In this document: positions 5,763 through 57,361 of the stretch, in pieces
Layout of the letters: the number at the start of each line of letters is the position of its first letter
Position numbering within the stretch: position 1 is the stretch's first letter
Assembly (NCBI RefSeq): GCF_028641065.1
Contig: NC_073378.1
Span: 14,942,001-15,006,000 of the forward strand
Origin: Leucoraja erinacea
Taxonomy: Eukaryota
Direction: 5' to 3'
Length of the DNA stretch: 64,000 nucleotides
Notes under the pieces: model-generated
Told to the model about the DNA's origin: nothing
The model's input: the letters and a program-made list of their open reading frames with translations, nothing else
Databases searched by the model: none
Program-made: the position numbers and the translations under genes

Positions 5763-5894
5763 GCTTTACTGTCTGTTCACGACACAGTGGCTATGAAGAA
5801 TTATGATCCCGTATTACCTCCAATGCCAGATGATTTTGACGATGATGAAGATTCAGTGAAAATTATTCGACTTGTCAAAAACAAAGAGCCTCTG
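5763..5894 (+). CDS. MPP7: MPP7-like MAGUK exon (L27 C-term/linker/PDZ start): [44 protein letters not shown]
   Basis: ttgcAG|...|GTaaag; 132 nt, phase 0-0; translation closely matches recalled human MPP7 [44 protein letters not shown]. Confidence 0.95.
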
Positions 5895-7246
5895 GTAAAG
5901 TGACACATTTTAGATTATAACTTATCAATTCATTTGCACTTGCAAAACGGCCTGTATTATGCATCCATTCAAAATTGCTTACTTTTGTCATTAAAACAAC
6001 TCACAGCTGCCTTTCTTTATGCGATTACTTATGGCATTAATTATTTATTAATGTGAGGGGTACAATCTCTCTTTGAACCACAGTGTTCTTGTGCATGTGT
6101 GCAAAATCTTAGCTGGGGTAAAATTGGATCAAACTTGAATAGTCAGATGCACGGTGAAATGCTTTCTAGCCTGTACTGAGAGTTAATCCTAACGATTAAC
6201 TCAGTAGAAAATGGCTGGTACAACAGTTAGATTACAATAGCTATTTTCAAGCCTTCTTAGGGCTGCCACTTGGATACAGGATGCCTATAAATCAGCCATC
6301 TGGGTTTGAAGCTCCTCAGTTCCCTGGCCAAATCTCATTCTTTAATACTTTTCATAAAATGTATTCTTTATGGTGAATCTGTTGGTCACCTTTCTAATAT
6401 TTGTTTTTGGCTCAGCATCAATTTTTATTTGATTTTGGATTTTTTGGCAATATTAGTAATGCAGTATAAATACACATTTATTTTAATACAAAATCAGTCA
6501 GTACTGGGAACTTTTAGTCCATTCCCTGGCATGACTGCTTCGAGTGTCTCTTGGACATGCCAGGGAAATGGACTAATTTCAGAAATTGATCCTAATTTCA
6601 GAAATTGTTGCAGTAAAATACTAATCATAAAGAGATTTGGTTGTTATTAGAGCATTCTATTCCAAAAAAAGCTATAATATACTTCTGTGTGTTTAGCAGT
6701 GAAAATGGATTAATGGATAATAAGTGTTAACGTGGGTCCAATAATTCTTGAGTACTGATCCTTCAATCAAAGTTTTGCTGTCAAGACTCCCTTTCCATGC
6801 AATAAGCTTGAGTCTCAGTGATTAACAACTTTAAAAAAAGTTATTTCTAAAATTCTATTCTTAATTTAAGTCAGATGCACTCAGCACTTTGTGTCGAACC
6901 TTGAAAATGTGCATTTGGCCTTACTGCATCACCCAATGAATTCAACACTAGACACTCACTTCATGAAGTGCCACCATATTATAGAGCTTGGTTCTTCAGT
7001 ATATAGTGTTTTCCTTTAATTTAACTGTGAAGAGAAAGTCACTATGCATGCTTAATGAAATTCAATTGTAATTATTGAAGATAATGTCTGTAATCAAAAA
7101 CAACTTTCCTTAAGGGGATTTTGTCTTAAATATTGTTTTGCAAATGACCACATGGAGCACGCTGATTAATTTTGGAAATTAGCGTTATATAATATTAACT
7201 TTGTCAAGAAGAATGCTTGTCACTTCTTTCCTTTCTGGATTATTAG

Positions 7247-7328
7247 GGAGCAACAATAAGAAGAGATGAACAAAGCGGTGCCATTGTTGTGGCAAGAATA
7301 ATGAGAGGAGGAGCTGCAGATAGAAGTG
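7247..7328 (+). CDS. MPP7: MPP7-like exon, PDZ: [27 protein letters not shown](G)
   Basis: attAG|...|GTacaa; 82 nt, phase 0-1; in frame with previous exon. Confidence 0.95.
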
Positions 7329-7443
7329 GTACAAATTTATTTCAAAGCATGTTCTCTGAAAGGTTTTGTAAAAGTGTAGGCTTTTAGAACTAACAAAATA
7401 AGTTGCAGTTTTTAATATTGCTGAAACATCTTTGTTGAAATAG

Positions 7444-7529
7444 GTCTAATCCATATTGGAGACGAACTGAGAGAAGTTAATGGAATCGCAGTTGAAGATA
7501 AAAGGCCTGAGGAAGTAATTCAGATATTG
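7444..7529 (+). CDS. MPP7: MPP7-like exon, PDZ: (G)[28 protein letters not shown]
   Basis: aatAG|...|GTatgt; 86 nt, phase 1-0; follows a 115-nt intron; PDZ GD-x-x-x-x-VNG motif. Confidence 0.95.
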
Positions 7530-8264
7530 GTATGTATTTCAGAGGGAACATTTGAATGTTTTAATCCCTGATTCAGTGAACTGATAAGCCTTATTCAATG
7601 TATATCTTTTGGCTTGACTTTATCTGTGTGATGATGCATCTGCCATTATTTAAGTCACATTCCTTGTGGAAATATCTGCATTTGCTTGGTATATTAAAAA
7701 CCTGCCCATAATAGGTTTAAATATAGGTTTATTATTGTCATGTGTACTGAGCTACAGTGCAAAGCTTTGTTTTGCAGACTATCCAATGAAATTAGATAAT
7801 ACATAAATACAATCAAACAAAACAAAAAAATATTTTGTACTATCAGCAAATTCTATAGTTTCCCCAAATCTGCCTTCCAGCCTATAAAGAAGCAAGTAAC
7901 AGAAATATTAACAAATTGCTTCTGCCCTTTGCACCAAACATCCGCTTGATCTGAGAGAAAACAGTGATATTTGGAGTGACAACCATCTTGTGGAAATGTC
8001 TATCAGCTCTGTTAGTTGTCTGAGTTAGCTGTCTCTTTGACACAGATAAGTGTTGAAAGGCAGAAATCAGAGTGGATTAACAACAAACTGCATTTCGTTG
8101 TCTCTGTACTGTACACTGACAATGACAATTAAAGTTGAATCTGAATCTGAACTATAAGATGTATCAAAGGCAAGGCTTTAATAAAGCAATTAACCTAGCA
8201 TGTGCATTTGGTTTGAATTCTAGTTTCATTTATCATGCAACATACTTGCTTGAACATTTGGACA

Positions 8265-8876
8265 TTCATGTGTTTTTCACTATTTATAAAATAATATGGT
8301 TGCTTGTCACTGATAGCGAACTGTCTGGATGTTGGGCTTCCTGCTTTCAAGAGCCAAATCAAGGGGAATGTCTGGGGTTCAGCTGAGTGGGGCATTGAAA
8401 CTGATTCAGTAGCACGTTATGTAAAAGAAAATTCTCAGACACAACACTAGAAATTGAAAATCATAAATTTGCCCTTTAAAGATTTATTTGTAAAAGAAAA
8501 TTCTCATTTCCAATGTATCAACAGAACACTAGAATTGCTAAAAATCATAACTTTCTTTTATCATTGAATTAAAAGTGTCCTGGCAGCAGGTGTTGGGGGC
8601 GGGAAGGTTTCGAAGCGGGGGTTTTTGACTACTTGCATGAACATTTGCACATTTTTTTCATGTGTTTTTCACTATTTATAAAATAATATGGTTGCTTGTC
8701 ACTGATAGCGAACTGTCTGGATGTTGGGCTTCCTGCTTTCAAGAGCCAAATCAAGGGGAATGTCTGGGGTTCAGCTGAGTGGGGCATTGAAACTGATTCA
8801 GTAGCACGTTATGTAAAAGAAAATTCTCAGACACAACACTAGAAATTGAAAATCATAAATTTGCCCTTTAAAGATT
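8265..8876 (+). repeat. Local direct duplication, 220-bp unit (8265-8484 and 8657-8876)
   Basis: The two copies read identical by eye, offset 392 bp. Confidence 0.9.
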
Positions 8877-9460
8877 AGAATATGTATAAAAGTTAAAATT
8901 TTCAACTAGAATGTGAAAATAATGTTTAAAATATTAATAATATTCCATTTGAAAAATGTACCAACAGAAGTTGTTAATTCAAGCACGAAGCTTCAAAGAT
9001 TGCTAATTTTCCTAGTTATACTTCCTTCAGTATCTAATAATGAGAATAATTTGTATATATCAAACATTTTATTCATGTAATTCTGGAGAAAATACAGGAC
9101 GATATATTGAGGGGAACAAAGTCACCAACAGCAACCTCTGGCTCTCCATTTTGTATACTCCAGTTGTGAAGTGTCGTAATACAGTCATATTTGTTATTTC
9201 AATTGCAAAATCAAGGCAATTAAATCCAGAAAACACATGAGATAATAAAAAGTATGGAGTTTGTGTATTAGGGTTTATAACTTCTGGGTTACTTTCACAA
9301 ACCATTAATGGAAAATTATAACGAAGGGAACAAATGTGGTTAGATTAACTTTGATTCTCTAATGCTTTCTTAATATGGTTAATTACTTGTTTTGTTGCTG
9401 TAATTTCTTAATGAAGTCGAAAATTACTAATTAGTGTATGCATTTTACAATTTTGCCTAG

Positions 9461-9535
9461 GCTCAGTCACAAGGAGCAATAACTTTTAAAATAATTCCTG
9501 GAATTAAAGAGGAGTCCCCAACTAAAGAACGTAAG
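9461..9535 (+). CDS. MPP7: MPP7-like exon, PDZ end: [25 protein letters not shown]
   Basis: cctAG|...|GTaggc; 75 nt, phase 0-0. Confidence 0.95.
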
Positions 9536-36735: not shown

Positions 36736-36932
36736 ATGTTTGTCAGGACTTTATTTGATTATGACCCTAATGAGGATAAAGTTATTCCATGCAAAGAAGC
36801 TGGGCTTTCTTTCAAGAACGGAGATATTCTTCAGATCGTTAGCCAGGATGATGCAACCTGGTGGCAGGCCAAGCAAGAGTGTGATGCCAATCTGAGAGCA
36901 GCACTGATCCCATCAAAGCAGTTCCAAGAGAG
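36736..36932 (+). CDS. MPP7: MPP7-like exon, SH3 domain: [65 protein letters not shown](R)
   Basis: Polypyrimidine tract + cgcAG|...|GTaacc; 197 nt, phase 0-2; MAGUK SH3 motifs LFDY, IPC, WWQA, LIPS; follows a 27.2-kb intron. Confidence 0.96.
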
Positions 36933-37642: not shown

Positions 37643-37707
37643 GAGATTTGCACTTCGAAGACCTGTGGCATTTGTTCAGCCACAAAGGAATTCCAATAGA
37701 CGATCAT
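37643..37707 (+). CDS. MPP7: MPP7-like exon, HOOK start: (R)RFALRRPVAFVQPQRNSNRRS
   Basis: ttgcAG|...|GTAAGT; 65 nt, phase 2-1; resembles recalled human RLALRRPEILVQPLKVSNRKS. Confidence 0.92.
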
Positions 37708-39945
37708 GTAAGTCAATATGTTGCATGATAATTGTTAAAAAGATTCACATTTTTGTAGCAAACGAAAAGAAACCCCAAGTGTTTCCACACAGTAAGTTAG
37801 CCTAGTTTATTTCTCTCAGTTCCCCCCCAAAATCTCCATAGCATGCCGGTGTCCGAAATCTGGTGGTGATTCTCTGTTGTGCTGTTGCTTGATTTGGCAG
37901 GTGGAGCCATGGTTAAAACCAAATTATGTGTGTTAATGCCAGGCAATGACATGCTGAGAATGGTAAATCTCCCTTGTGGAATGGTAACTATTTTAAATGG
38001 TTGGCAACACTGAGACACTGATTCATGATATTATAGTTTGGAGATTTTATCCAGCCATACAGAGATTTGGGACTGTTTTGTCATTTGTAATATGGAAGAC
38101 TGTTTTAAATGCACCCCTATCACACATGCATATTACAATCTCTGGTGTAATTCATGTTCTGCCAGATGGACTTCAGAGCTAGACAAATAGCAATTGGTCA
38201 TTTTTCAAGCACATAAGAACTTTTAACAGAAGTCGGATGGATTTCCAGGTCATTGGTGAGAATGTTCTTATGTGACTTGAAAAATTGATGTGATGTGTTC
38301 GGACTTGGGCAATCATGCTCTCAAATTTGCATTTTTAATCCATAAATTAAATCAGTGCTCCTTACTTTTGACTGTCTGTGGTAGATATTTTGGCCATTAC
38401 TGCAGAACTGAGCATGATTTGTAAATTCATCATTAGGTTTTCCACCAACTTGAATAGCTTTAATTTGTTTTAAAAAAATTGATTCAGCATTTGATTTGTG
38501 GAATTGGGCAACATGAACAAGAGGAAGTTTTTAACTGCATCCAAATGTTGTTCATTTGAACAAGATGTAACCTGGTTTTACTGGCAAGTTTTGTCTCTCA
38601 ACTGTGGTACCGCTTTCAGTTGCATTTGAACTTGAACTGAGACAAAAGAAAGAATGCATTGTGAATGGTACCAATTTTGAAAGGCTAAAAGTTTAAAAAT
38701 AATATAAACCAGGTGTTTGCAAGCAATCTGACATCTTGCAGTAATGAACCTTGTCTGTCGTGGCAACTTCTTGCAGACATTTCTCGTAATCAATTTATCC
38801 AATTAAATTGAGTACTTTAAACATGCCAAAGTTTAAATAATTAACAGATTTTGTCACGGTTTGTGTAAATCAAGCACTCTAACATTCTAGGTGTAAGCTG
38901 ATGATGAAGTAAAGGAATTCCACAGATCTAATCACATCCTTTTAGTTCAAGGCGGTTCAGGAAACACCACAGCAAATCATATGAGGTGTAATATTTTTCC
39001 TTGATGCTCGCACAGTGTCGAGGACATGAAGTATGAAGACATTAGAGTAGTCGTTCTGCTTTACCTGCAATCAGGAAATTAGAGACAAAATGTACTTGAA
39101 GTTGTGCTGGTTAGATTCCAGTAAATTTTGCAAATTAAAATCGTCTATGAGCCAAACCAAATGAAATATAATTATTTATTTTCTATTTTAATTAAAATTG
39201 ATTCATTGATATACTTTAGAGTGGTATCATTGCACATTTGAAAATTACTACTGAAAATTAATTCAGTACCAATAATAAGTATTTTGAGGATTTCTAGTCA
39301 TGGGTAAAGTCACAGAAATGTAATTCAAAAACTGCAGCAAATAGTTTAATATATTGTTTTGCTTGGAAAAGTTTAAAATATGGTTCTTAGATTCTGCATA
39401 CCTGAGGAAATTGGTGCATTTGAAACGAATCTCAAACTCGTGAAAAAAAATTGCAAAGGAAACTAAGATGTGAATGGTTTTGAAAGTAATAAGTTTGGTT
39501 TAAAACTGTCTTTTTTTTTTAATGTTAGTTTGGTTGATTTTGCCAAGATAATTAGAATGTAAATTAGCTGAAATCCTATCCCAATATTCCTGAAAGAAAA
39601 CTGAAGTTAGATGTCATATTAAGTAACCTTTATTTTGCATAGGAACATTTGTTTTGTGTGGTACAATGAATGCCTTGAGGTTTTAATGTGATAACATAAA
39701 GTTGAAAATAATTTGGTCATTTCAATAAAATACATGCAGATACATTCCTAAATGTGTTAAAATGACAAAGTACTTGAAAGATCCAGGATTTAGCTTCGAT
39801 GAAATATGTCACTTGCTTATCTTAAAATTATAGATCAAGGACTTGTCCTAATATAGGCGTGTGCCAATTTGTGTGTGGGTACATCCTTAATTCTTATGAG
39901 ACAAAATGTATTTTCTTCTTCCTCCTTTCTGTTGGCTGTTCTAAG

Positions 39946-39966
39946 ATGAGGAAACTATTGAGATTG
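39946..39966 (+). CDS. MPP7: Putative 21-nt alternative microexon, HOOK: (Y)EETIEI
   Basis: Long pyrimidine tract ttttcttcttcctcctttctg...ctaAG|atgaggaaactattgagattg|GTAGGT; phase 1-1, open in the MPP7 frame. Confidence 0.75.
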
Positions 39967-40070
39967 GTAGGTTGAGTTTTGTTTCTTTTTGAACAAAATT
40001 AGAGCAATTTGAACTTTTTCTTCCAACTATTTCAATTTTGTGCTTTCTCAATTTTTTTACTGCTTCGCAG

Positions 40071-40082
40071 AGGAAATTGAAG
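40071..40082 (+). CDS. MPP7: Putative 12-nt alternative microexon, HOOK: (E)EIE
   Basis: U-rich tract + TGCttcgcAG|aggaaattgaag|GTattt; phase 1-1; 104-nt intron after the 21-nt exon. Confidence 0.62.
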
Positions 40083-40175
40083 GTATTTGAACTTATATTT
40101 AACTACAGAACTAAATTGATTTGTAATATTAAAAAAAGTATAATGGTGAAGCTGCAAGAGCTATAATTCTATAAT

Positions 40176-40288
40176 TCTATAGTGTGTTGAGTCCTGTTTA
40201 TTTTTATTGTATGGCTGTATGGGAATTCATTTCACTGTGCCATCTGGCACATGTGACAATTAAATCTATCTTGAATCTTGAATCTTGA
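40176..40288 (+). mobile_element. 3'-end fragment of the 60085-60880 family
   Basis: Near-identical to reverse complement of ~60090-60200; (cttgaat)n tail. Confidence 0.8.
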
Positions 40289-41089
40289 GCAGTTTGTCAA
40301 TTGCATGTTGAATGTGTAGAGCACATGATTAAGTGCATGAATATGAGGTATTCTTCAATAACTTGGCTGCACTTAAGTTTTTTTCATTTTTCACTGGTCT
40401 ACTTTTGTAAAGCATATTAAAATTAAACAATTGAATAATATATAAATGAACATGATATTTTATATCACAGTTCCACCAACAGTAAAGATTTGTGGTGTGA
40501 ATCTCGTTTATTGTTTTTGCTGGTCTATTTTAGTAAATTAGATATGTAAGAGTATTTATGAAAGAGGATCAGTATAGGGCAAACTTTTGATATCAAGTAA
40601 TTTTCTATGATATGAATTGTAGATTTTTAAGCTTGTCTTGACAACTTGGCTTGACAGCAGATTTTCCCAAATGGTATGGTTCATCAAAATATAATTTGGA
40701 TCCCTCAGGCCAAGTTATTTGTTATAAATTCAGCAGAATTAGAATGCATTAACTAGAGTAAGAAGGAGAAAATAACACAATAGTGCAGCTTACTGAAAGG
40801 GAATATAAACAACTTTAAGTCTATGTTTGAATTCATGGTCTTCTCCATTTTGTGAAAAATATCTGGGGAAGTGCAATTTGTGTTTATATATGTTGCAATG
40901 GGTGATTGGCAGTAGCTTGGATGTCTAGAACTGTGATATTTCCCCTTTTATTGATACAATAGTAATAAAAAACAGGATTATCGACAGGCGGTTAAACTTT
41001 TTCTTCCTATAAAATCCAATAATATCGTGTTTGTTCAGTTTTTTTGCCTGTGCACTATAAAGTTTATCCGACACATCACAACCAATACT

Positions 41090-44000
41090 TAGTATGAATA
41101 CTCATATATGTATTACTTTATATGTAAGTCTGAAGAAAGGACTCGAAATACACATTGAATATAGACCTCCCGGTCTCTATGTGAATATAGTTAAATGTTT
41201 AAAAGAAAACTTATGTATAAAAGAAACAAAAAGATAAAAAGAAAAAAAAGAGAAAAAAGGAAAAAACAAAACCCCCCTAAACTAAAGAGGAAAAAAAGCA
41301 AAACAGAATCTGGGCTGCAAAGAATTTCAACAATTTAAATCCCTGTTTGTCGTCAAGTCCGTTCCACTGTATAAAGGTAAAATAATTATTATAACAGTTG
41401 GAGAGGGGACAATTTATGTTGTGTGAAAATGTTGAACAAATTTTCCCCAAGTCCTATCAAATTTAACCAAGGGTTCAACAACGTCACTCCTGATTTTTTC
41501 TAAATTTAAACATGATATTGTTTCAGAGTACCAATGGAGTGTGGTCGGAGGGTTAGAGTCTTTCCATTTAAATAAAATAGATCTTCTTGCAATTAATGTG
41601 GTAAAAGCAATCAGCCGATGGGCGGAACGGGACAGATGAATAGAATCTAACATTGGTAGCCCAAAAATTGCAGTAATAGGATGAGGTTGTAAATCAATAC
41701 CTAAAACTACAGAAATAGTATCAAAAATTAATTTCCAATATTTTTCCAAAAGTGGGCAGGACCAAAACATATGAGTCAGTGAGGCCACTTCAGAGTTACA
41801 TCTGTCACAGGTAGGATTTATATGACCATAAAAATGAGCTAACTTATCTTTTGACATATGAACCTTGAATTGTATCAAAGCGTATCTTGCACACATTGAG
41901 GAAGTATTAACTAATTGAAGAACCTCTCCCATTTCTCTATAGATAGAGAAATTTGAAATTTGTCTGAAATAAATACAAAAATGTAGGTGATAAACATTTG
42001 AATATTGATTCGGCCGATTAAAGATAAGGACATTGGTGAACATTTAGTAAACTGTTGTTTGATATGGTCAATTAGAGGCGTAAAATTAGCTTTAAATAAA
42101 TCCTTGTGTTTCTTGGTAATCTTAATACCTAAATAAGTAAAACATTCGGTAGTCAATCTAAATGGAAACTAGATTGTTTAATGGAAAAAGCTCACTCTTA
42201 CTAAGATTTAGTTTAGAAAAACTACTAAATTGATTAAGTCGTGCTACTATTGCCGGAATAGATTTCTCAGGATTAGAAATGAATAATAACAGATCATCTG
42301 CATAAAAAGATAGTTTATGTGTCTTATTCCCGCGGACAATACCAAAAATATTAGGGGATTCCCTAATAGCGGTGGCCAAAGGTTCCAAAGCGATATCAAA
42401 CAGTAAAGGACTTAAAGGACAGCCTTGTCTAGTACCTCGAAAGAGCCTGAGAAAAGGGATCACTGATTATTGGTAAGTACAGAAGCCTGAGGTATAGGAT
42501 ATATCAGCTTGATCCAATAAATAAATTTTGGACCAATCTTAAATGTTTCAAGTGTATTGAATAAGTATTCCCATACTACTCTATCAAACGCCTTCTCGGC
42601 ATCAAGTGAAATGACACATTCTGGAGTTATATTTGACGCGGTATATACGATATTCATTAATCTCCCAACGTTAAAGTATGAGTAACGATTTTTAATAAAA
42701 CCTGTCAAATCTTCAGAAATAATTTGCGGTAAAATATTTTCCAATCTCATAGCTAATATTTTGGAAAGAATTTTGGAATCTACATTTAACAGTGATATAG
42801 GTCTATATGATGTCACTACAGTAGGGTCTTTATCTTTTTTAAGAATTAAAGAAATAGATGTTTCATAAAAATATTGTGGTAATCTATTCATTAAAAAGGC
42901 TTCTTTAAAAACCTTGCATAGCCAGGGAGACAGTAAACTTGAGAAATACTTTAAAAATTATACTATAAACCCATCTAAACCGAGAGCTTTACCAGAATTC
43001 ATCGAAAGGATTGGTTTCTGTATTTCTTCCTCCGTGATGGGTTCGTCTAACAACAGAGACTCATTATGTACTAAATTTGGCAAGTTCAGTTTCTTTAAAA
43101 ACTGATGCATTATATTGGAATCAGTAAAAAGTTCTGATTGGTATTGGGAGGTATAAAATTCCTGAAAGGATTTATTAATTACATCATGGTCTACAGTCAG
43201 TGTACCATCCCGTTTACTCACTTTAGTAATCTGACGTTTGGCCGACACCACTTTTATCTGATTGGCCAGTAATTTACCAGATTTTGCGCCATGTATATAA
43301 AATTGACTTTTGGTTTTAAGTAGCTGATTCTCAATCGGTGATACTAATAACAAATCATGTCTCAATTGAAGTTCAACTCTATTCTTATAGAGCTCTAAAC
43401 TAGGAGCTTTTGAATATGTTTTATCAATTTCTTAAATCTCATCAGCCAATATACATATTTCATTTTGAGTTTGTTTTTTTAATCCCACGGAGTATGAAAT
43501 AATTTGTCCACGGATATATGCCTTAAAAGCATCCCAGACTACACCATTGGATATTTCTTCAGTAGAATTTGTTATGAAGAAAAAAGCAATCTGATCTTTA
43601 ATAAAATTAACAAAATTTAGATCTTGAAGCAAAGTAGTATTAAATCGCCATTGTTTAGCACTAAACTTGGAATCAGGTAGTTTGATTGATAGTTTCAATG
43701 GTGCATGATCAGAAATAGCAATTGATTCACACTCACATGCAGTGACCGATGAAACCAGCCGAGAATCTAGTATAAGAATCTATTATAAAGTAGTCAATCC
43801 AAGAGTAACTATGATATACATGAGAGAAAAAATTACATTCTTTGTCATTTGGGTGTGAGAATCTCCAGACTTCTAACATTCCAGAGTCAAGTAAAAAATA
43901 ATTGATAAAACTAGCTGAATTATTTGGAAGCACATTAATCAGAAGCAGATCTGTCCATCGAGGGGTTCAAACAACAGTTAAAGTCTCCACCCATTATTAA

Positions 44001-44460
44001 AAAGTGTTCATTTAAATTAGGAAAGGATGCAATTAACTGTTTAAAAAACTCAGGGTGATCAATATTTGGTGCATAAACATTCACCATAGCAACTTTTTGG
44101 TTATGAAGAACACCAATAATCACCAAAAAATCATTGATTGTCATCTTGCCTTACATGATATTCCTGAAAAAATATAATCTGAGCATTTAGTCTACGAAGA
44201 ACTTTAAAAAAAAAATTCCTCTTAATGGGATGGTTCAAACCATTCACATTCCATGAAAGGAAGTTAATAACGTTATCCATATTGTTTGTAAAAATTATCT
44301 GTAATGTAAAGGGTTAATTTCTTAAAGCATAATAGTTCAGGATACTGGAAGAAGAAAAATCTAGGGCATAGCCAGAAGTGACGACATTTCAGATTTTTGT
44401 AGTTCAGATTCTACACAGATGAAAAAAGCTAAGCTAAAAGCAAAAGGCTCCGCCCCACCC
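41090..44460 (-). mobile_element. Decayed L1-clade LINE: ORF2 (EN, RT, Cys-rich C-term) and spacer
   Basis: ORF2 start at 44280 MDNVINFLSWNVNGLNHPIKR; VNVYAPN, GDFN, SYRPISLLNVD, RGTRQGCPLSP, YADD, CDRC...HMFWSC. Confidence 0.93.
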
Positions 44461-44464
44461 ATGC

Positions 44465-45450
44465 AACTGAATTAGCGAATTGTTGGTTTGCCGGAAGGTC
44501 AAGAAGGAGATAATGTTATACAATATGCTTCTAAAATGATAAAGGAGACTTTCAACATCGAGTACTATGAAAATCTTCCATTTTTGGATAACGCACACAG
44601 AATTGGGAAGAAATCTGGTCCCAAGATAAACCGAGACATTTGATTGTTCGGTTTCACTTCTTGCAGATGAAGGAGAATATTCTCCAGGCAGCAAAAAAGT
44701 TGGGCATGGTTGAATATGAAGGATGCAAGTTTTTGGTTTGTTCCTGATTATAGTTACGAGCTTTTGGAATTAAGAAAGTCTTTCCATAATGTAATGTCTG
44801 AGTTGTTTAAGAAAAAGTTGCGCCCTGCCTTACTTTATCCAGCTAGACTGCGTAAACGACTCTTTAATGGTAACATTCGATTTACTAACAATACTCAAGA
44901 TGCTTCCAGCTTTCTGGAGGCTTATGAGGGTGAAGTTGCGACCGGGAGCAATAATAGCTGATTAATTTATAATTGGAGATTCACTGTTCCTATTTTGATA
45001 ATAAATCGTTTTGTAATGATTATGAATTGGATGAGTTGGGTTTTTTTATTTACTTTTTCGAATTTTAGTATGATGGTATCAAACAACAACTTTTACATTC
45101 TCTAAGATACTGTTAATTTAATGTAATGGTATATATATATTAATTTTTAAGATTTTCTTTGGTAGCCTTCCTATTTTTTTAAATTGAAGGAATTTTTTTT
45201 TACTTCCCGTCTTGAGACAAATTAAGTGAACGCAGTTCTTGTTTTTCATATTTTGACCTTGGATAAATAATATGAAGTAGCTCTTGTGTCCCACTGCTAA
45301 AATTGACTTTTTTAACCATAACATTAATTTTGTTTTGCCTATTGAGTGGCAAATATGCTTTCTTGTTACGTTGGTTGCTGTCGTTAGGAGAGATGGGGGT
45401 AGGGAAGGGATTAGGTAGCGTACTGACTGTCTACTGGTCAGTTTCGGGCT
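44465..45450 (+). mobile_element. L1 ORF1 3' half plus inter-ORF spacer, inverted relative to ORF2
   Basis: RIVGLPEG..E..AHRIG..PRHLIVRF..PDYS..LLYPARLR; stop at 44961. Confidence 0.85.
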
Positions 45451-45494
45451 TTGCAGGTTAAATTCCATCTGCCATTTCTCCTCCTGTATCGAGA

Positions 45495-46700
45495 TCCTTC
45501 ACTGTGAATCGTATGCAACTTCATCTTCTGGATCAGCCTATCATGAGGGACTTTGTCAAATGCCATACTAAAATACACGAAGGCATTAATCACCTTCATT
45601 GCCTCATCAAAAAACGTAATCAAGTTAGAAAGATGTGACCTGTTGTGGACATAATCAAGGTGACTGCCATTCTCTTCCAAATTGGAGCAGATCCTATTCC
45701 GAGGAATTCTCTCGAATAGCTTCCCGATCACTGATGTGAGGCTATCTGGCTCATAATTTTCTATTGTTATCTCTACTTCCCTTCTTATACAAAGAAACAA
45801 CAATGGCTGCTTTCCAATTCTCCAGGACATTGTTTGTGGCTAGAGAGGAATCAATGATCTTCGTCAAGTCCCATACAATCTCTTGTCTCGTCTCAATAAC
45901 CTGAGTTAAATACCACCAAGCCTTGGGAATTGATCCGCCTTAATGCTTTTCAAGAGACCCAACACCATCTCCTCCATGGTCTCAAACAGCCCGAGCATAT
46001 TAGTACACCACGGACTGATCTTGCTGTCCTCCATGTCCATCTCATTAGTGAATACCTATGCTAAGTACTCGTTTAGTACCTCACCTACATTCTGTGAATC
46101 CAAGTATAAATTTTTTTATTTTATCCTTGATCAGCCCTACATAGCCCTCTCGTTTTTAATGTACATATAAAAAGCCTTGGAATTTTCTTTATTCTGACAT
46201 GCTCTTGATGTTTCAAGGCCTCTTTTGTTCCTTCTAATTCCCTGGTTGAGTTATTTTCTGCTTGCTTTATATTCCCGGAAGGCTCTGTCTGGTTTCAGTT
46301 TTTTAAACTGTACACATGTTTCCTTTTTGACCAAATTTACAACCTCTTTGGTCACCCGAGATTCACTTACCTTGCCATCCTTGTCCCTCCTCCTTACTGG
46401 AACATGCCGGTCCTGAACTCTGATCAGCTGATCTTTCAATGACTCCCACATGTCTGGTGTGGACACGCCCAATATCAGCTGCTCCCAATTTATTCTCCCG
46501 AGTTCCTGCCTAATGATGTTGAGATCCACCTTACCCCAGTTTAGTACTTTCCCCCCAAGATCTAGACTTGTCCTTATTCATAACTATCTTAAAGCTTATG
46601 GAGTAGTGATCAATAATGATCACTGTTCAAAATGCTCTTCCACTGAACGACCAGACTCGTTTCCTACTACAAAGTCCAATATGGCTCTCCTCAAGTTCAT
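45495..46700 (-). mobile_element. Degenerate CR1-like fragment
   Basis: FSMAFDKVPHDRL (ORF 45438) and IRQELGRINWEQ (ORF 46251). Confidence 0.8.
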
Positions 46701-46854
46701 AAGATCATAAGGAATAGGAGTAGAATTAGGCCATTTGGTCCATCAAGTCTACTCTGCCGTTCAATCATTGCTGATCTATCTCTCCCTCCTAACCCCATTC
46801 TCCTGCCTCCTCCCCATAACCCCTGACACCTGTACTAAGTTGGACTATGCACAG

Positions 46855-47258
46855 AAGATAAACACAAAATGCTGAAGGAATAGGTGACGTTTCAGGTCAA
46901 GACCCTTCTCCAGTCTGGGAATCAGGGGAGGGGAAAACTAGAGGAAAGAAAGGTTCAGAACAAATCAGAGCCAGCACCGATGACCAAGGAAAGGTGTAAC
47001 TCACAATGATATGTTGGCTGATATGGGGAAGAGGTGATAATGAAGGGATATATGCATGCAAGCAGTGGAACTAGTAGGACCACTAGAGTGGAGGAGGGGC
47101 GCAGAGAAAGAGGGAATGCAAGGGTTACTTGAAATTAGAGAAATCATAATTCATATCGCTGGGTTGTAAGATGCCCAAGTAAAATATGAAGTGCAGTTCC
47201 TCCAATTTGTGTGTGGCCTCACTCTGACAATGGAGGAGGCCCAGGGCAGAAAGGCCCA
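46855..47258 (-). mobile_element. Penelope-derived element
   Basis: Complement of LGLLHCQSEATHKLEELHFIF; gtgacgtttcaggtcaagacccttctccag core. Confidence 0.75.
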
Positions 47259-47874
47259 AGAATATCCACATGCTGCTTTAAGAAATGAGTTTGGATATAC
47301 CTGACAAATTCAGCCTTGTCTAATACTTTTGTATTAAGCACGTCCCAGTCAATTGTTAAATAGTTAGCTAGCTGTGCTCAGTTCTGGCTGAAAATAATAG
47401 AAATGTGGATGTTTAGAGAGCAATGGTCACCATGAAACTAAAACAGATTAAAATAAAATGCTGGAGGAACTCTTCAGGATGGGCAGCAGCTGCGTCGGAA
47501 AATTGACAGATGAGGTTTTGGGTCGGGATCCTTCTTCATGACTTGGATCCACAGATGTTGCCTGACCTACTGAGTTCCTCCAGCAGTTTGTTTATTACTC
47601 AGACTCCCAGCATCTGCTGTTTCTTGTATCTCCAAACTTAAACTGATCTTTATCCTCCTCTTTTTCAATTGTTTATCTTCTTGCTCTTTTAAAGGTACAG
47701 TAATTTCTGTCTCTTTATTTCATATTTTATACAATTTGTGTTCTTTCTCGGTACCCTGTTATTTGTAATAAATAATTCATTACAAACTGCCCATCCAGGG
47801 AATAATTTTACTATTATTTTCAAACTCTTCATTTTTGAGACTTTTTTGGGAAGTATTTTGATGTTCTCTAGTAC

Positions 47875-48350
47875 AATTTACTAGAATGTTGCCTGGGTTT
47901 CAGCAACTAAGTTACAGAGAAAGGTTGAACAAGTTAGGGCTTTATTCTTTCGAGCGCAGAAGGTTAAGGGGGGACTTGATAGAGGTTTTTAAAATGATGA
48001 GAGGGATAGACAGAGTTGACGTGGAAAAGCTTTTCCCACTGAGAGTAGGGAAGATTCAAACAAGGGGACATGACATGAGAATTAAGGGACTGAAGTTTAG
48101 GGGTAACATGAGGGGGAATTTCTTTACTCAGAGAGTGGTAGCGCTGTGTGGAATGAGCTTCCAGTGAAGGTGGTGGAGGCAGGTTCGTTTTTATCATTTA
48201 AAAATAAATTGGATAGTTATATGGATGGGAAGGGAATGGAGGGTTATGGTCTGAGCGCAGGTATATGGGACTAGGGGAGATTATGTGTTCGGCACGGACT
48301 AGAAGGGTCGAGATGGCCTGTTTCCGTGCTGTAATTGTTATATGGTTATG
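47875..48350 (+). mobile_element. CR1-clade 3' fragment (second subfamily)
   Basis: LSYRERLNKLGLYSFERRRLRGDLIEVFK (ORF 47886). Confidence 0.9.
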
Positions 48351-49046
48351 ACATCCAGCTGAACCTCTCCAGTGAATCTGCTGTATCTTCTTTACACTTC
48401 AGTGCATGTGGGCAACCCAAAAACTACACAGTTATAATGGTTTCTTCTGTAAATGTTCATTGCTTTTTACTTTGCCACCCAGTGTTTCTGTTTGGGAAAT
48501 ACAACTTTTATCCACCTGCTGTCACACACGTGGGAATTTGTGTTTTAACCTGTTTTTATCTTTGCTCAGAAAGCTCCTTTGCCTTGTTTCTCCCTTCTAA
48601 AAATATGGCTAAAATAGTGAAGTTAAATCCATCACCAACTCTTTCCAATTCTTGTCATTGCCCATCTGTGGTTAACCGTATCCTTTCTTTTGATGCCGGG
48701 CTCATTTTAATTCAATTTGTGGAATCTGATCATTTCCCCACAGCTAATGTTTGAATCTCAATTGTATTGCTTAGAAAATTGTCAGAAATATTTTAAACAC
48801 AAGAGAACTCAGACATTTGTTTCCTTACATCCTATGGCATCAATTGTCACCTCATGCACCAAATTCCTGTGGATTATGAAAATATTGAGTCAGATTTTGA
48901 AACTGGCAATAAATCAGAGGACCAATCAATCATTACATTGACAAATGTGCATAAATCTTTCTTTGGCAATTAAAAATTCAAACCTCGCATTAATTAAGGG
49001 GGATATATTATGAGATTGAGCAGCATAAGCAGTAATCCGTTTCTTT

Positions 49047-52000
49047 AACATAGAAACATAGAAAATAGGTGCAGGAGTAGGCCATTCAGCCCTTCGAGCC
49101 TGCACCGCCATTCAATATGATCATGGCTGATCATCCAACTCAGTATCCCATACCTGCCTTCTCTCCATACCCCCTAATCCCCTTAGCCACAAGGGCCACA
49201 TCTAACTCCCTCTTAAATATAACCAATGAACTGGCCTCAACTGCCTTCTGAGGCAGAGAATTCCACAGATTCACCACTCCCTGTGTGAAAAATGTTTTTC
49301 TCATCTCGGTCCTAAAAGACTTCCCCCTTATCCTCAAACTGTGACCCCTTGTTCTGAACTTCCCCAACATCGGGAACAATCTTCCTGATTCTAGCCTGTC
49401 CAACCCCTTAAGAATTTTGTAAGTTTCTATAAGATCCCCCCTCAATCTTCTAAATTCTAGCGCGTACATGCCAAGTCTATCCAGTCTTTCCTCATATGAA
49501 AGTCCTAACATCCCAGAAATCAGTCTGGTGAACCTTCTCTGTACTCCCTCTATGGCAAAAATGTCTTTCCTCAGATTAGGAGACAAAAACTGTACGCAAT
49601 ACTCCAGGTGTACAACTGCAGAAGAACCTCCCTGCTCCTATACTCAAATCCTTTTGCTATGAATGCTAACATACCATTCGCTTCCTTCACTGCCTGTTGC
49701 ACCTGCATGCGTACTTTCAATTACTGGTGTATCATGACACCCAGTTCTCATTGCATCTCCCCTTTTCCTAATCGGCTACCATTCAAATAATAGTCTACTT
49801 TCCTGTATTTGCCACCAAAGTGTATAACCTCACATTTATCCACATTATACTGCATCTGCCATGCATTTGCCCACTCACCCAACCTATCCAAGTCACCTTG
49901 TAGCCTCCTAGCATCCTCCTCACAGCTAACACTGCCCCCCAGCTTCGTGTCATCCGCAAACTTGGAGATGTTGCATTCAATTCCCTCATCCAAATCATTA
50001 ATATATATTGTAAATAGCTGGGGTCCCAGCACCGAGCCTTCTGGTACCCCACTAGTCACTGCCTCCCATTCTGAAAAGGACCCGTTTACTCCTACTCGCT
50101 GCTTCCTGTCTGCCAGCCAGTGAAGAGAAAAAGATTAGTTAAAACAAATGTAGGTCCCTTGCAGTCAGATACAGATGAATTGATCATGGGGAACAAGGAC
50201 ATGGCAGACCAATTGAATAACTATTTTGGTTCTGTCTTCACTAAGGAAGACATAAATAATCTGCCGGAAATAGCAGGGGACCGGGGGTAAAATGAGATGG
50301 AGGAACTGAGTGAAATCCAGGTTATCCGGGAAGTGGTGTTAGGTAAATTGAATGGATTAAAGGCGGATAAATCCCCAGGGCCAGATAGGCTGCATCCCAG
50401 AGTACTTAAGGAAGTAGCCCCAGAAATAGTGGATGCATTAGTGATAATTTTTCAAAACTCTTTATTTCTGGAGTAGTTCCTGAGGATTGGAGGGTAGCTA
50501 ATGTAACCCCACTTTTTAAAAAGGGAGGGAGAGAGAAAACGGGAAATTACAGACCAGTTAGTTTAACGTCGGTAGTGGGGAAACTGCTAGAATCAGTTAT
50601 TAAAGATGGGATAGCAGAACATTTGGAAAGTGTTGAAATCATTGGACAAAGTCAACATGGATTTATGAAAGTTAAATCAGGTCTGACGAATCTTATAGAA
50701 TTATCCGAGGATGTAACTAGTAGAGTTGATTAGGGAGAACCAGTGGATGTGTTATATCTGGACTTTAAGAAGGCTTTCGACAAGGTCCCACATAAGAGAT
50801 TACTATACAAACTTAAAGCACACGGTATTGGGGGTTCAGTATTGATGTGGATAGAGAACTGGCTGGCAGACAGGAAGCAAAGAGTAGGAGTAAACGGGTC
50901 CTTTTCACAATGGCAGGCAGTGACTAGTGGGGTACCGCAAGGCTCAGTGCTGGGACCCCAGCTATTTGCAACATATATTGTGTATAATATAAGTACTGAG
51001 AAGGTTCACCAGACTGATTCCTGGGATGTCAGGATTTTCATATGAAGAAAGACTGGATAGACTCGGTTTGTACTCGTTAGAATTTAGAAGACTGAGGGGG
51101 GATCTTATAGAAACTTACAAAATTCTTAAGGGGTTGGACAGGCTAGATGCAGAAAGATTGTTCCCGAAGTTGTGGAAGTCCAGAACAAGGGGTCACAGTT
51201 TAAGGATAAGGGGGAAATCTTTTAGGACCGAGATGAGGAAAACATTTTTCACACAGAGAGTGGTGAATCTCTGGAATTCTCTGCCACAGAAGGTAGTTGA
51301 GGCTAGTTCATTGGCTATATTCAAGAGAGAGTTAGATGTGGCCCTTGTGGCTAAAGGGATCAGGGGGTATGGAGGGAAGGCAGGTACAGGATACTGAGTT
51401 GGATGATCAGCCATGATCATATTGAATGGCGGTGCAGGCTTGAAGGGCCGAATGGCCTACTCCTGCACCTATTTTCTATGTTTCTCTATCCACATCAATA
51501 CTGAACCCCCAATACCGTGTGCTTTAAGTTTGTATACTAATCTCTTATGTTGGACCTTGTTGAAAGCCTACTGAAAGTACAGATATAACACATCCACTGG
51601 TTCTCCCTTATCCGCTCTACTAGTTACATCCTCGAAAAATTCTATAAGATTCATCAGACATGATTTGCCTTTCATAAATCCATGCTGACTTTGTCCAATG
51701 ATTTCACCACTTTCCAAATGTGCTGCTATCCTATCTTTAATAACTGACTCCAGAATGTTCCCCACCACCGATGTTAGACTAAGTGGTCTGTAATTCCCCG
51801 TTTTCTCTCTCCCTTTTTAAAAAGTGGGGTTACATTAGCTACCCTCCCATCCTCAGGAACTACTCCAGAATCTAAAGAGTTTTGAAAAATTATCATTAAT
51901 GCATCCACTATTTCTGCAGCTACTTCCTTAACTACTCTGGGATGCAGCTGATCTGGCTCTGGGGATTCATCGGCCTTTTATCCATTCAATTTACCTAACA

Positions 52001-52660
52001 CCACTTCCCGGCTAACCTGGATTTCACTCAGTTCCATCTCATTTGACCCCCGGTCCCCTGCTATTTCCAGCAGATTATTTATGTATTCCTTAGTGAAGAC
52101 AGAACCAAAGTAGTTACTCAATTGGTCTGCCATGTCTTTGTTCCCCATGATCAATCCACCTGTTTCTGACTGCAAGGGACCTACATTTGTTTTAACTAAT
52201 CTTTTTCTCTTCACATATCTCTAAAATCTTTTGCAGTCAGCTTTAATGTTCCCTGCCAGTTTTCTTTCATAATCTATTTTCCCTTTCCTAATTAAGCCCT
52301 TTGTCCTCCTCTGCTGGACTCTGAATTTCTCCCAGTCCTCTGGTAGGCTGCTTTTTCTGGCTAATTTGTATGCTTCATCTTTTGTTTTGATACTATCCCT
52401 GGTTTCCTTTGTTATCCACGGATGCACTACCTTCCCTGATTTAATCTTTTGCCAAACTGGGATGAATAATTGTTGTAGTTCATCCATGCAGTCTTTAAAT
52501 GCCTTCCATTGCATATCCACCGTCAACCCTTTAAGAATCAATTGCCAGTCTATCTTGGCCAATTCACGTCTCATACCCTCAAAGTTACCTTTCTTTAAGT
52601 TCAGGACCCTTGTTTCTGAATTAACAATGTCACTCTCCATCCTAATGAAGAACTCAACCA
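49047..52660 (-). mobile_element. CR1/HER1-like LINE split by an antisense insertion
   Basis: RT ORFs 49140, 49748, 51568, 51978, 52221; sequence breaks at ~50121 and resumes at ~51483. Confidence 0.93.
50122..51483 (+). mobile_element. Same-family CR1 inserted in opposite orientation, with internal deletion at ~50985
   Basis: ORFs 50743 and 51026; 3' tail ttctatgtttct. Confidence 0.93.
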
Positions 52661-53264
52661 GAGGATAGGCACAAAATGCTGGAGTAACTCAGTGGGACAG
52701 GCAGCATCTCTGGAGAGAAGGAATGGGTGACTTTTCGGGTCGAGACTCTTCTTCAGACTTCAGAAGAACGTGAGGACATGGGTTTAAGGTGAAAGGGGAA
52801 ATCTGAGGGGCAGTGTTCCAACACAGAGGCTGGTGGGTATATGGAACAAGCTGCCAGAGGAGGTAATTGAGGCAGGTACTATAACAACATTTAAAAGACA
52901 TTTGGACAGGTACATGGATTGGACAGGTTTAGAGGGATATGTGCACAATGCTGGCAAGCAGGCCTAGTGTTGATGGGGCATCTTGGTCAGCATGGGCAAG
53001 AAGGGTAGATGGGCCTCTTTGCATGCTGTATGACTCCATGACAACAGTTAAAACTTTTATAATACCTTTAGGAATTGGTTTGTTTTTCAAGGATTTTTTA
53101 ATTTCCTGTGGTGGGCGAGGAGATGAAATTGCAATTTTACATCTACTACTTATACTCTTGGAAGTTAATAGTGAATAAATATGGATCAACAGAGCAAAGT
53201 GGAGATTTATTTCTGCCCTCTGCGCTGTGTTCTCTGCACTTGTGCATAATGGATTTCTTTAGCT

Positions 53265-53930
53265 GTCATTTCAACTCCCCATCCCACTTCCATACTGGCC
53301 AGTCTGGCCTCAGCCTTCTTCACTTATAAGGTGCGGCCAACACAAATCAGAAGAACACCACCTCATATTTTGCCTGGATAGTTTACAATCCCATGGTATG
53401 AACATTTCCAGTTTCAAGTTACCCTCGCCCTTTGTGTTCCATTCCCATACTCACAAGTCCTCTCTGGAAACAAGGGACGGCGGATGCTGGTATGAACATT
53501 GAATTCTCAAATATTTGGTAACTACTACCACACCCCCACACTCCCCTCCCCTTTTCCTTTACATTCCCCCGTTCTTCTCCCCAACCTCCTCGCCTTTGCC
53601 CCACCTTAATTCGTATCTATTTCCCGAATCCCCTACACTTCCACCTATATTCTTTTCACTCGCTTCCCTCCCCCCCCACTCCTTTACCTGTATCCACTTT
53701 CACCTACCAGCTTTCCTGGCCCTGTTGTCTTCCAACTTCCTTCCCACATGACAATCGGTCTGAAGAAGGAACCTGACCTGAAACTTTACCTATCCATGTT
53801 CTCCAGAGATACTGCCTGACCTGCTGAGTTACTCCGAAGATAGACACAAAAAGCTGGAGTAACACAACAGGACATGCAGCATCTCTGGAGAGAAGGAATG
53901 GGTTTTGGGTCGAGACCCTTCTTCCAGACT
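53265..53930 (+). mobile_element. Composite Penelope-derived elements
   Basis: CHFNSPSHFHT...EEHHLIFCL..GMNI remnant; core ctgaagaaggaacctgacctgaaac at 53760. Confidence 0.7.
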
Positions 53931-54267
53931 AAATTATCTCTTAGCACCAAAAACGTACAAGCCTCTGTCTCAACACTACCCACTCCCCCTCTTCAACCTA
54001 GCTCCATCTACTCATCATTTCCCTTTTCTCATTTGGTCCACCTATTACCGAACAACCACTATATCACCCTCCCTCTCATTTTTGTACACAAGCTTTTACA
54101 CACACTCGGTCAACGCAGGATCTCAACCCAAATCCTCAACCATCCCTTTACCTCCACATGTCCTGCTTGACCTACTGTGTTCTTCCAGCAATACTATAGA
54201 GACACAAGAGACTAGAGATACTGGACTCTTGAACAAAAACAAACTAACGAATGAACTTAGCAGCCAA

Positions 54268-54580
54268 GTTTAGTTTAGTTCAGAGATACATCGCGGAACC
54301 AGGCCCTTCAGCCCACCGTGTCCGCACCGACCAGCAATCCCCGCACATTAACACTATCTTCGCACTCTCGGGACAGTTTTCACTTATACCAAGTAACCAT
54401 TTAACCTACAAACCTGCACATCTGTGGAGTGTGGTAGGGTTTGGATCTCGGATAAAAACCCACGCGGTCACATGGAGAACATACAAACTCCGTACGGACA
54501 GCACCCGTAGTCGGCATCGCGTCTTTGGCGCTGCAATGATGCAAGGCAGCATCTCTACCGCTGCGCCACCGTGCCGCCCC
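54268..54580 (-). mobile_element. HE1/V-SINE-like SINE
   Basis: Reverse-complement similarity to 16357-16650, including (tttag)n tail. Confidence 0.8.
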
Positions 54581-54997
54581 CTAGTTTCCTTCCATAGTTA
54601 CATCTATGGGAGGAAATGGACAGATGACATTTCAGCTTGGAACTTTTCTTCTGAATGTTATGGTAGTACAGTTAGAAATAGCAATATGTATTATTCATAG
54701 GTTGCACTGCTTTTCTGGAAGTGTATTATAAAATGAATATGGATTTGCCTGCACAGAGTAAGACCATTAATAAGATGATTTTTAATTCTAATTGCGAGGC
54801 CCACTCTAGTATTTATATACTACTGGATATTTTTGTGTTACAATTTCATATCCTTCAAAGGTGGTATGGTTGTCTATCGACGAAACCATCATAGATCACA
54901 CGGTTGTCTACAACAGTTCTTATAGTTCTTGACCAGATTACATTGCATCATCAGGGTGTGTGGATAATTAAAACTAACTTTTAAATGCATTTTGAAG

Positions 54998-55422
54998 ATA
55001 AGTTAGGTCTTTATTCTCTGAAGCGCAGAAGGTTAAGGGGGGACCTGATAGAGGTCTTTAAAATGATGAGAGGGATAGACAGAGTTGATGTGGACAAGCT
55101 TTTCCCTTTGAGAATAGGGAAGATTCAAACAAGAGGACATGACTTCAGAATTAGGGGACAGAAGTTTAGGGGTAACATGAGGGGGAACTTCTTTACTCAG
55201 AGAGTGGTAGCGGTGTGGAATGAGCTTCCAGTGGAAGTGGTGGAGGCAGGTTTGTTGGTATCCTTTAAAAATAAATTGGATAGGCATATGGATGAGAAGG
55301 GAATGGAGAGTTATGGTATGAGTGCAGGCAGGTGTGGGACTAAGGGAAAAAAAGTTGTTCGGCACGGACTTGTAGGGCTGAGATGGCCTGTTTCCGTGCT
55401 GTAATTGTTATTTGGCTATATG
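54998..55422 (+). mobile_element. CR1-clade 3' fragment, same subfamily as 47875-48350
   Basis: ORF 54985 LGLYSLKRRRLRGDLIEVFK. Confidence 0.9.
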
Positions 55423-55971
55423 GTTAAAAGTATTATTTTGTACCTCTCCCAAATTTGTTTCTCCCTGCCGCATGTTGAAACATACAAGCCTAAGTGGAAC
55501 CCACTAAGTATTGACAGTAGTTTCAAGTGTACTTCTAGTGACATGGTGACACCAAAACAGAATATTTATTATCCAGTTGAGATTTCATGACATGGTGTCC
55601 AGACTTGTGTCTTTGTTATGAAATTGCATTCGGAACTATTTGATTATTGGTGTCCAGATGTTAATTCGTCCTTCATTTAAAATGAAATATTTATTAACTT
55701 TTCCTTTATTTCTGATATGTTTCTATTCATGCACTTAAAATAGGCCAATGCTTGCTGAAATCGACCATAATCTTTCACTACTATTGTTCCCAAGTTCAAG
55801 ATTCCTGTGTGATATGATACGATCACATATGATTTTTAGAAGTTTTTTTAATACAGCATAAAGAGGACTTCATAGTTTTGATTGGTGGCCAGCCATCAAA
55901 GCATTTTTCAGAATTTCTCAGCGATTTCATCTCGGGCTTTTTCTGGCTCTCTAATCTGATAGTACAATTGG

Positions 55972-56500
55972 TTAATTATTGCCATGTGCACTGAGATATA
56001 GTGAAAAGCTCTCCTTGGTCTATCGTATCCACTGTATCTTGGACTATCCAGTCCAATCATGAGTTCCGTCAAGCCATGCACAAGTACACCAGGTAGTGCA
56101 AAGAGAAAAATACCAATGTGCAGAATATTGTGTTACCCCATTGCAGTTGCACAGAAAGTGCAGATATAAAAATAAAGTGCAAGGTCAGCAATGAGGTAGG
56201 TTGGAAGATCGGGGCTCCACCCCAACTGGGTGGGAAGGCCGTTCAGTAGTGTGACAACAGTAGGGAAGAAGCTGTTCCTGAATCTTCTTGCTTTCACGCT
56301 TTTGTATCTTCCGCCTGATGCAGAGGGGTAAAGATGGAATATCTGGGCTGAAAATGGTCCTTGATTTTGTTGGCTGCTTTCCTTACGTTGCTGCGGTATG
56401 CTTTGATACTGAGGATTGAGCTTGAACGACAAATTGACAATGATGGATTTGATAAGTGCATATTTACTGGATAGGTTAGTGATGAGCATGGGGATCCAAG
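55972..56500 (-). mobile_element. Degenerate Rex1-type 3' fragment
   Basis: GGRYKSVKARRFRNSFFPT in ORF 56133. Confidence 0.6.
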
Positions 56501-57319
56501 TGGAAAACGCCAATGTAAACTCATCATGATGTACTTGCACTATATCCACCCAAGTCCTTCAATATTTAAGACCTTTGGATAACTACATGGATAGAAAAGG
56601 TTTAGGATGTAGGCCAAACGCAGGGAGGTGGAGATGAGGCATCTTGGTTGCTTGGATAAGTTGAGCTGCAGGGCCTGTTTTTATGCTGTATAACGCAATC
56701 AATCAATACTAGATTGTGTTGCTATATTTCCTTGGTGGGGTGATGCAGGTTGTTACAAAGCCACAGAATCACATGAACGTATGAGCTTGTAATAATAGTA
56801 ATTGGCCAAGGTTTCATAGAGGTCCTTAAGAAAATTAAAGACGGAATTGCAGCGAAATCCTCAGAAATTCAATAGTATAGTAACTAATATATGAGTGGTG
56901 TATTGAAATTTGACTGGTAAAGTTGGAATCAATACCAAACCTCTGGCTCTTTGTGACTGTAAAACACACACTAGTGGTATAAACGTCAACTGTGATATAT
57001 CTTAAAGATAAAACACTTCAGAAATTTGTTCCATGATCCCCAATTAATTATAAAGTGCATTTGGAGTCCTATTTTATGTTTATTCCTTTTCTCCTGTTTA
57101 AAATGTTGTTTGCATTTTTCAAAGCATTATACTACAAGGTCAAGTGTAGCGATCCATCTCAAATTGAAAACTTTAGAGCTCTGTCAGTTTGGTGCTTGGT
57201 TAATGAGAGCACTTACCTTGATGGCTTACATTGTATCTGTCTGCATTTTTTGGCTGAACCTCTAACTGTTCTGCTTCTTTTTCTGGCCTTTGTTCACTGT
57301 GCTTGTATCCTTTCTCCAG

Positions 57320-57361
57320 AAGATGCTGAATATGGTGACCTTTTCAGTGGACTCTATATAG
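57320..57361 (+). CDS. MPP7: Putative 42-nt alternative exon, HOOK: (E)DAEYGDLFSGLYI
   Basis: AG-free zone ~57210-57317, CTAAC branch-like motif at ~57262, tttctccAG|...atag|GTGAGC; phase 1-1; same length as recalled MPP3 ETCDCEGYLKGHYV and shares its G-x-Y ending. Confidence 0.8.
   Translation, partial: KMLNMVTFSVDSI

Follow-up and report, generated by a model that had tools for sequence, protein, structure and literature searches.

Does the MPP7 gene of the little skate carry optional exons in the HOOK linker between its SH3 and GUK domains, and what would they do to that linker? The stretch analysed here (the window) comprises 64,000 nt of Leucoraja erinacea contig NC_073378.1, and the window exons described below lie on its + strand. 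A preliminary description of this sequence proposed a hidden cluster of three frame-preserving microexons that form an acidic cassette within the basic HOOK. We find that all three exons exist and undergo splicing in skates, as transcript-derived proteins match them exactly. With a probability of about 0.7, we read them as three spliced, optional HOOK exons, conserved in jawed vertebrates, that form a cassette likely enriched in nerve and retina, which would weaken the positive charge of the linker and tune the binding of its partners.

Three optional exons in the HOOK of skate MPP7

The first HOOK exon (37643..37707) is 65 nt long, its last base being a lone T that begins the junction codon, and contigs from three runs (X1, X5 and X8) join it to the SH3 exon and to a 171-nt exon. 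Between the 65- and 171-nt exons lie microexon 1 (39946..39966; 21 nt, 7 residues, flanked by AG and GT), which starts with AT so that the join encodes Tyr, ends with G, and acts as the gate exon of the scheme weighed below; microexon 2 (40071..40082; 12 nt, 4 residues), which starts with AG; and exon 3. The latter has a long form (57320..57361; 42 nt, 14 residues) that starts with AA and, through a NAGNAG tandem acceptor 3 nt further on, a short form (57323..57361; 39 nt) that starts with AT. AG acceptors and GT donors are present at the reported boundaries, the cassette exons are all phase 1-1, and joining 21, 12 and 42 nt in order adds 25 residues, 10 of them acidic, and no stop; the preliminary description was correct on all of these points, coordinates included. 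The successive introns from the 65-nt to the 171-nt exon measure 2,238, 104 (39967..40070; 122 nt in mouse), 17,237 and 22,096 nt, the 171-nt exon being the next coding exon, 22,096 nt past 57361 and outside the window (L003:5458-5628). Under the 27-nt cut-off of PMC9303857, the 21- and 12-nt exons belong to the microexon length class (≤27 nt), while exon 3, at 42 or 39 nt, is a short exon, so that two of the three originally proposed microexons keep that name.

The decisive evidence for the exons comes from two transcript-derived proteins. P0129 (601 aa; four Logan contigs, the longest of 2,907 nt) contains the exact SH3-to-GUK peptide of the window with all three exons, using the acceptor at 57320, and P0001 (589 aa) contains exactly the 39-nt form alone, a 13-residue insert that uses the acceptor at 57323. 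Both are identical to the RefSeq protein P0121 except for the insert and its junction residue. Because residues 106-601 of P0129 map to exons across ~135 kb, the contigs represent spliced transcripts. The skip form, in which the 65-nt exon runs straight to the 171-nt exon, occurs in 3/3 contig runs (X1, X5 and X8) and in P0121, P0127, P0131 and P0133. Skip, 39-only and full forms are all present in skate transcripts, which bears out the proposal of alternative splicing. The 14 contig runs on record are presumed to be RNA. Read mapping covered positions 37500-40400, a range that excludes exon 3 and its joins; within it, the contigs of X1, X5 and X8 contain only the skip join. The cassette was hidden only in so far as the two little-skate RefSeq isoforms listed are without all three exons, gene models that call for correction; RefSeq models of a related skate, as well as splicing tables of mouse and chicken, include it.

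Splice-site quality by itself is modest evidence, which enriches for exons and does not prove them. Over the 41,750-nt span from one flanking exon to the other, a site filter with author-chosen, uncalibrated thresholds (6-51 nt, multiple of 3, open frame) let through 10 candidates. They use 8 acceptors, of which 4 are the real ones, tandem site included. The four unrelated acceptors in the same span are what could be expected if the exons were chance intronic sequence or pseudo-exons. Set against this are the exact assembled-transcript matches, the conservation from chimaera to mammals and the published inclusion values; the transcript matches and the inclusion values of orthologues refute the pseudo-exon reading, and the probability left to chance is negligible. 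Directly after microexon 2, at 40173-40288, lies a short repeat that matches many unrelated transcripts.

The gene was rightly named MPP7. Its SH3 exon finds its best matches in MPP7 proteins of skates, rays and sharks, its domain order is L27-PDZ-SH3-HOOK-GUK with best matches named MPP7, and in a quick tree built from 29 proteins without their HOOK it falls with MPP7 (clade support 96 in the Shimodaira-Hasegawa-like approximate likelihood-ratio test), apart from MPP3 and MPP4. The skip peptide encoded by the window is an exact match in the little-skate RefSeq proteins P0121 and P0127. Upstream of the cassette lie the SH3 exon (36736..36932; 197 nt, ending in phase 2) and four further MPP7 exons (5763..9535), which encode approximately residues 106-230 of P0129, that is, the end of the L27 region and the PDZ domain.

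Distribution in vertebrates and in MPP3 and MPP4

Of 318 MPP7 proteins, 302 were parsed (16 were not); 160 of these skip the cassette and 142, from chimaera to mammals, carry an insert. Two of the 142 are platypus forms read by eye, and the other 140 were split and counted by size, the counted rows being isoforms of related species and not independent events. The most frequent inserts have 25 (46 proteins, one a read-through model), 13 (35) and 24 residues (22), followed by 21 (16, four of them a shrew 13+8 form), 31 (8) and 11 (4). Rare sizes are 7 (3, one of them exon 1 alone), 8 (2), and 6, 18, 20 and 27 residues (1 each), the 18-residue insert being a pike 7+11 form and not a closed combination in the sense described below. 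That 24- and 25-residue inserts both exist matches the two tandem-acceptor forms.

Carriers comprise chimaera, sharks, rays, bichir, paddlefish, gar, bowfin, pike, crocodiles, birds, monotremes, a marsupial and placental mammals, the last including rodents (the mouse copy is in P0479), bats, ruminants and a tarsier. Among the orthologues that the preliminary description had singled out for comparison, sharks, chimaera and gar therefore have the insert, whereas the coelacanth models listed do not. It is also missing from the four parsed human entries (P0096, P0097, P0583 and P0584), which are protein entries and not the human locus. Judged from these sequences, the cassette is conserved across jawed vertebrates, and the mouse retinal microexon would date to the jawed-vertebrate ancestor. 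Some mammals (mole-rats, marmot, a dolphin and shrews) have an extra piece of 6-8 residues after exon 3 (P0029, P0118, P0477, P0056, P0561 and P0564), by which the cassette has grown in places.

The same genome allows a comparison of exon lengths with the paralogues, as had been suggested. Skate MPP3 has HOOK exons of 65+21+42 nt and skate MPP4 of 65+18+39+21+15+42 nt, and both thus contain matching 21- and 42-nt exons. As in MPP7, these exons are phase 1, the 65-nt exons end in T, both 42-nt exons give a stop on direct joining, and skip isoforms are found in databases; the 42-nt exon of MPP4 also retains the same tandem acceptor as MPP7. The base identity of MPP7 to the exons of the two paralogues is 12 and 14 of 21 for the 21-nt exon, and 27 and 23 of 42 for the 42-nt exon. 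Unlike MPP7, MPP3 has no middle exon in the mapped MPP3 proteins, while MPP4 has a 15-nt middle exon (the exon split first given for MPP4 was off by one residue), extra exons of 18 and 39 nt, and a full HOOK that is net negative (-5). Because the layout and the stop joins are common to all three genes, inheritance from a common MPP3/4/7 precursor is the simplest reading, and the cassette layout likely predates the duplications, which belong to the early vertebrate genome doubling. The view that the switch is ancestral and retained in this lineage is, in its first part, well supported by the MPP3 and MPP4 exons; the second part is too narrow, as birds to mammals have it as well.

Skate MPP4 lies at G000:C7:46843516-46837347 (L037), and of its five short phase-1 HOOK exons (18, 39, 21, 15 and 42 nt), direct joins are open only for the 18-nt exon, the 21-nt exon and the short form of the last exon. 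In teleosts, the MPP3 models P0301, P0307 and P0323 contain 22 additional residues at the corresponding place in the HOOK. Elsewhere in the skate genome, an SH3 exon resembling that of CASK occurs in two copies ~110 kb apart (G000:C13:25004265 and 25114581; L019, L020 and L029-L036); the 40-kb stretches around the two copies are ~98-99% identical over most of their length, and represent a tandem duplicate or an uncollapsed haplotype.

Inclusion in neural and retinal tissue

Published inclusion values are available for the exons of mouse and chicken, which agree with those of skate in gene, order, lengths, the 65- and 171-nt flanks and a similarly short intron between the microexons, the insert sequence of mouse P0479 fitting the same pattern; the intron before exon 3 differs, at 17,237 nt in skate vs ~936 nt in mouse. 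First, the mouse 21-nt exon (chr18:7430395-7430415) is classed as NEURAL-UP and its inclusion correlates with Srrm4 level, with a proportion spliced in (PSI) of 0.13 in low-Srrm4 islets vs 0.40 in high-Srrm4 islets (PMC8395343). Second, the mouse 12-nt exon (MmuEX6000123) is a retina microexon with a PSI of 93.1 in retina, 48.7 in neural tissue and 2.97 in others, and a 39-nt chicken retina exon (GgaEX0010525) has corresponding values of 77.3, 33.7 and 8.5 (PMC9303857). Lastly, the mouse 42-nt exon (chr18:7429282-7429324) and the 21-nt exon both appear in an rMATS table (PMC4991804). Neural or retinal enrichment is thus published for three of the four listed mouse and chicken exons, which stand in separate table rows with the cluster undiscussed; MPP7 is unnamed in the main text of PMC9303857, the supplement of which was searched in 12 of its 18 files. 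No mpp7, mpp3 or mpp4 rows were found in the supplements of two zebrafish microexon papers (PMC12626424; PMC12626420, 12 of 13 files searched for the second), and no row for the cassette exons in the readable parts of the Musashi knock-out tables (PMC9509328). Parts of the cassette are already catalogued in mouse and chicken, and the skate copy joins the known neural microexon clusters.

The SRRM3/4-dependent retina microexons (RetMICs; PMC9303857) resemble the MPP7 microexons in being ≤27 nt long, multiples of three, conserved and situated in a scaffold linker, and the mouse 12-nt orthologue is listed among them. They differ in that, in MPP7, a length that is a multiple of three does not ensure an open frame, since a join can make a stop, and in that we infer SRRM3/4 control in skate from the mouse and chicken orthologues and from weak motifs. 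By analogy with the class in other vertebrates, inclusion of the two microexons in neurons and photoreceptors of skate would probably depend on SRRM3/4-type factors. TGC, as a putative UGC motif, occurs upstream of the acceptors of the 12-nt exon (-10 and -30) and of exon 3 (-20 and -48).

Several observations weigh against a cassette that is enriched and regulated in this way. In the 60 nt before the acceptor of microexon 1 there is no TGC, while the constitutive 65-nt exon has two (-5 and -45), which leaves the motif support weak. Enrichment of RBFOX motifs was considered and rejected, with 46 copies of TGCATG in the window vs 46.6 expected by chance. In mouse, the 21- and 42-nt exons were unchanged in the photoreceptor-less retina of the Aipl1 knock-out (false discovery rate 1; PMC4991804). 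The 21-nt exon was included in mouse retina at 0.43-0.89, with 4-9 inclusion reads per sample (PMC4991804), below the value of 93 for the 12-nt exon (PMC9303857); this is contrary to strict gating by the 21-nt exon, which predicts the reverse, with data sets and methods that differ. Among the skate data, the contig runs come without recorded tissue, and the raw-read run X21 had 0 reads on the 65-nt exon and is hence uninformative. Finally, most database isoforms are automated models.

Junction stops, linker charge and partner binding

The preliminary description let the exons combine freely, for a maximum of 8 in-frame isoforms, a count that fails at the first join. Because the 65-nt exon ends in T, its direct join to the 12-nt exon or to the 42-nt form of exon 3 creates a stop, so that 5/8 combinations are open and 3/8 are not; the tandem acceptor adds three open forms. 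With the 39-nt form counted, all 12 combinations were translated, and 8 are open and 4 closed. Those that begin with the 12-nt exon, three in number, are closed by TAG, and TAA closes the one that consists of the 42-nt form only. The 21-nt exon takes up the T (as Tyr) and passes on a G, for which reason the 12-nt exon or the 42-nt form is open only in its company, whereas the 39-nt form is open on its own, the tandem acceptor bypassing the stop. The stop in the closed forms falls at codon 318, with further exons on to residue 601, and it lies well upstream of a later exon junction, the position required for coupling to nonsense-mediated decay. Since several introns follow the stop, we would expect the four stop-bearing forms to be removed by this decay.

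Among the 302 parsed MPP7 proteins, each of the 8 open combinations was found at least once, and the 4 closed ones were all absent. At the junction, 136/140 split inserts have Tyr, and 160/160 skips have Ser or Phe, which is consistent with a conserved T. That full-length proteins include no closed form is partly a circular finding, which tells against its use as support for a gate: as closed forms cannot yield full-length proteins, it shows only that no sampled species opened the closed joins. Among 15 MPP7 proteins with short ends, five terminate precisely with the final residue encoded by the 65-nt exon (P0304, P0589, P0575, P0065 and P0219, from mouse, macaque, camel, a whale and a coelacanth entry). 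They fit junction-stop joins, which they do not demonstrate, and could be taken to mean that such joins are purposeful, either lowering the level of MPP7 or making an L27-PDZ-SH3 protein of ~317 residues without GUK. We regard such a purpose as improbable, because incomplete models, or the use of a different last exon, would produce the same ends in these proteins, and no join of the 65-nt exon to the 12-nt exon was seen in the skate contigs of X1, X5 and X8 within 37500-40400.

It is possible, if doubtful, that the MPP3/4/7 ancestor evolved a junction-codon logic gate, with the 21-nt exon as its key, decay of the wrong combinations, a tandem acceptor giving a separate weakly acidic isoform, and a stepwise series of HOOK charge, the whole having been maintained by selection from before the radiation of jawed vertebrates. 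The stops may instead be a by-product. On this view, donors prefer G as the last base and selection keeps the insert acidic, which makes Glu codons frequent at the junctions, and a Glu codon after T reads as a stop; co-regulation, not decay, would then link the exons, and the intron of 104-122 nt between microexons 1 and 2 may favour their joint inclusion. We lean slightly towards this explanation. Glu is as fixed at the non-junction position 2 (24/24 distinct 25-residue inserts) as at the junction positions 8 and 12 (23/24 each), and the 42-nt exon of MPP3 begins with Asp, which leaves the join open, in 2/14 distinct versions, findings that both speak against a selected gate. On the other hand, position 9 of MPP7 tolerates Asp and positions 8 and 12 never do, and the stop-avoiding tandem acceptor is kept in both MPP7 and MPP4, its 13-residue product being common (35 proteins). 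A literature search, with most subscription journals outside it, found no published description of the MPP7 cluster as a unit or of its junction stops. The dependence on junction stops, with a tandem-acceptor bypass common to MPP4, is the one unreported detail, and may itself be such a by-product.

From the SH3 end to the approach to GUK, the net charge is +12 in the skip form, +10 with the 39-nt form and +2 with the full insert. The cassette does add acid to a basic HOOK, as originally described, although the HOOK with the full insert is still net positive. The SH3-HOOK of MPP7 is identified in a review (PMC7662862) as the binding site for MPP5/PALS1, and several MPPs bind protein 4.1 through their HOOK (PMC7662862, PMC12781724). 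No solved structure covers the MPP7 HOOK, as MPP7 entries match residues 4-121 and 134-225 and PALS1 entries skip 293-374, and the single-sequence fold of P0129 (mean predicted local distance difference test score 32.6) gave no usable structure. The HOOK inserts I2, I3, I4 and I5 of DLG1/SAP97 are likewise alternative SH3-GUK linker exons of a MAGUK that alter the charge pattern; spliced in, they change calmodulin binding and location, and the pair I2+I3 is reported to give a stop (PMC9307800). DLG1 belongs to a different subfamily from MPP7, and its inserts leave a net positive HOOK. By this analogy, the acidic block would dampen or reshape binding at the basic HOOK, and there is an even chance that it alters SH3-HOOK binding to PALS1 or other basic-linker readers.

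The insert could instead serve as a plain spacer or carry a motif of its own, with a conserved Tyr and Gly and possible phosphorylation sites, rather than act through charge. The 39-nt form alone shifts the net charge by only 2, Gly22 is invariant (23/23) and Tyr24 nearly so (20/23), and the C-terminal half of the insert resembles the MPP3 and MPP4 exons. However, the acidic positions 2, 8, 12 and 13 are the most conserved, and an effect of HOOK splicing on calmodulin binding through the charge pattern is reported for DLG1 (PMC9307800), and we consider a spacer or motif to be rather unlikely.

Our findings open no new kind of system. They do mean that frame-preserving exons can still form stops at phase-1 joins, by which isoform counts and the design of microexon knock-outs can be misled; if the 21-nt exon were deleted, the 12-nt and 42-nt forms would be silenced too. 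If it is true that the insert alters PALS1 binding, neural splicing would be tied to the Crumbs polarity scaffold.

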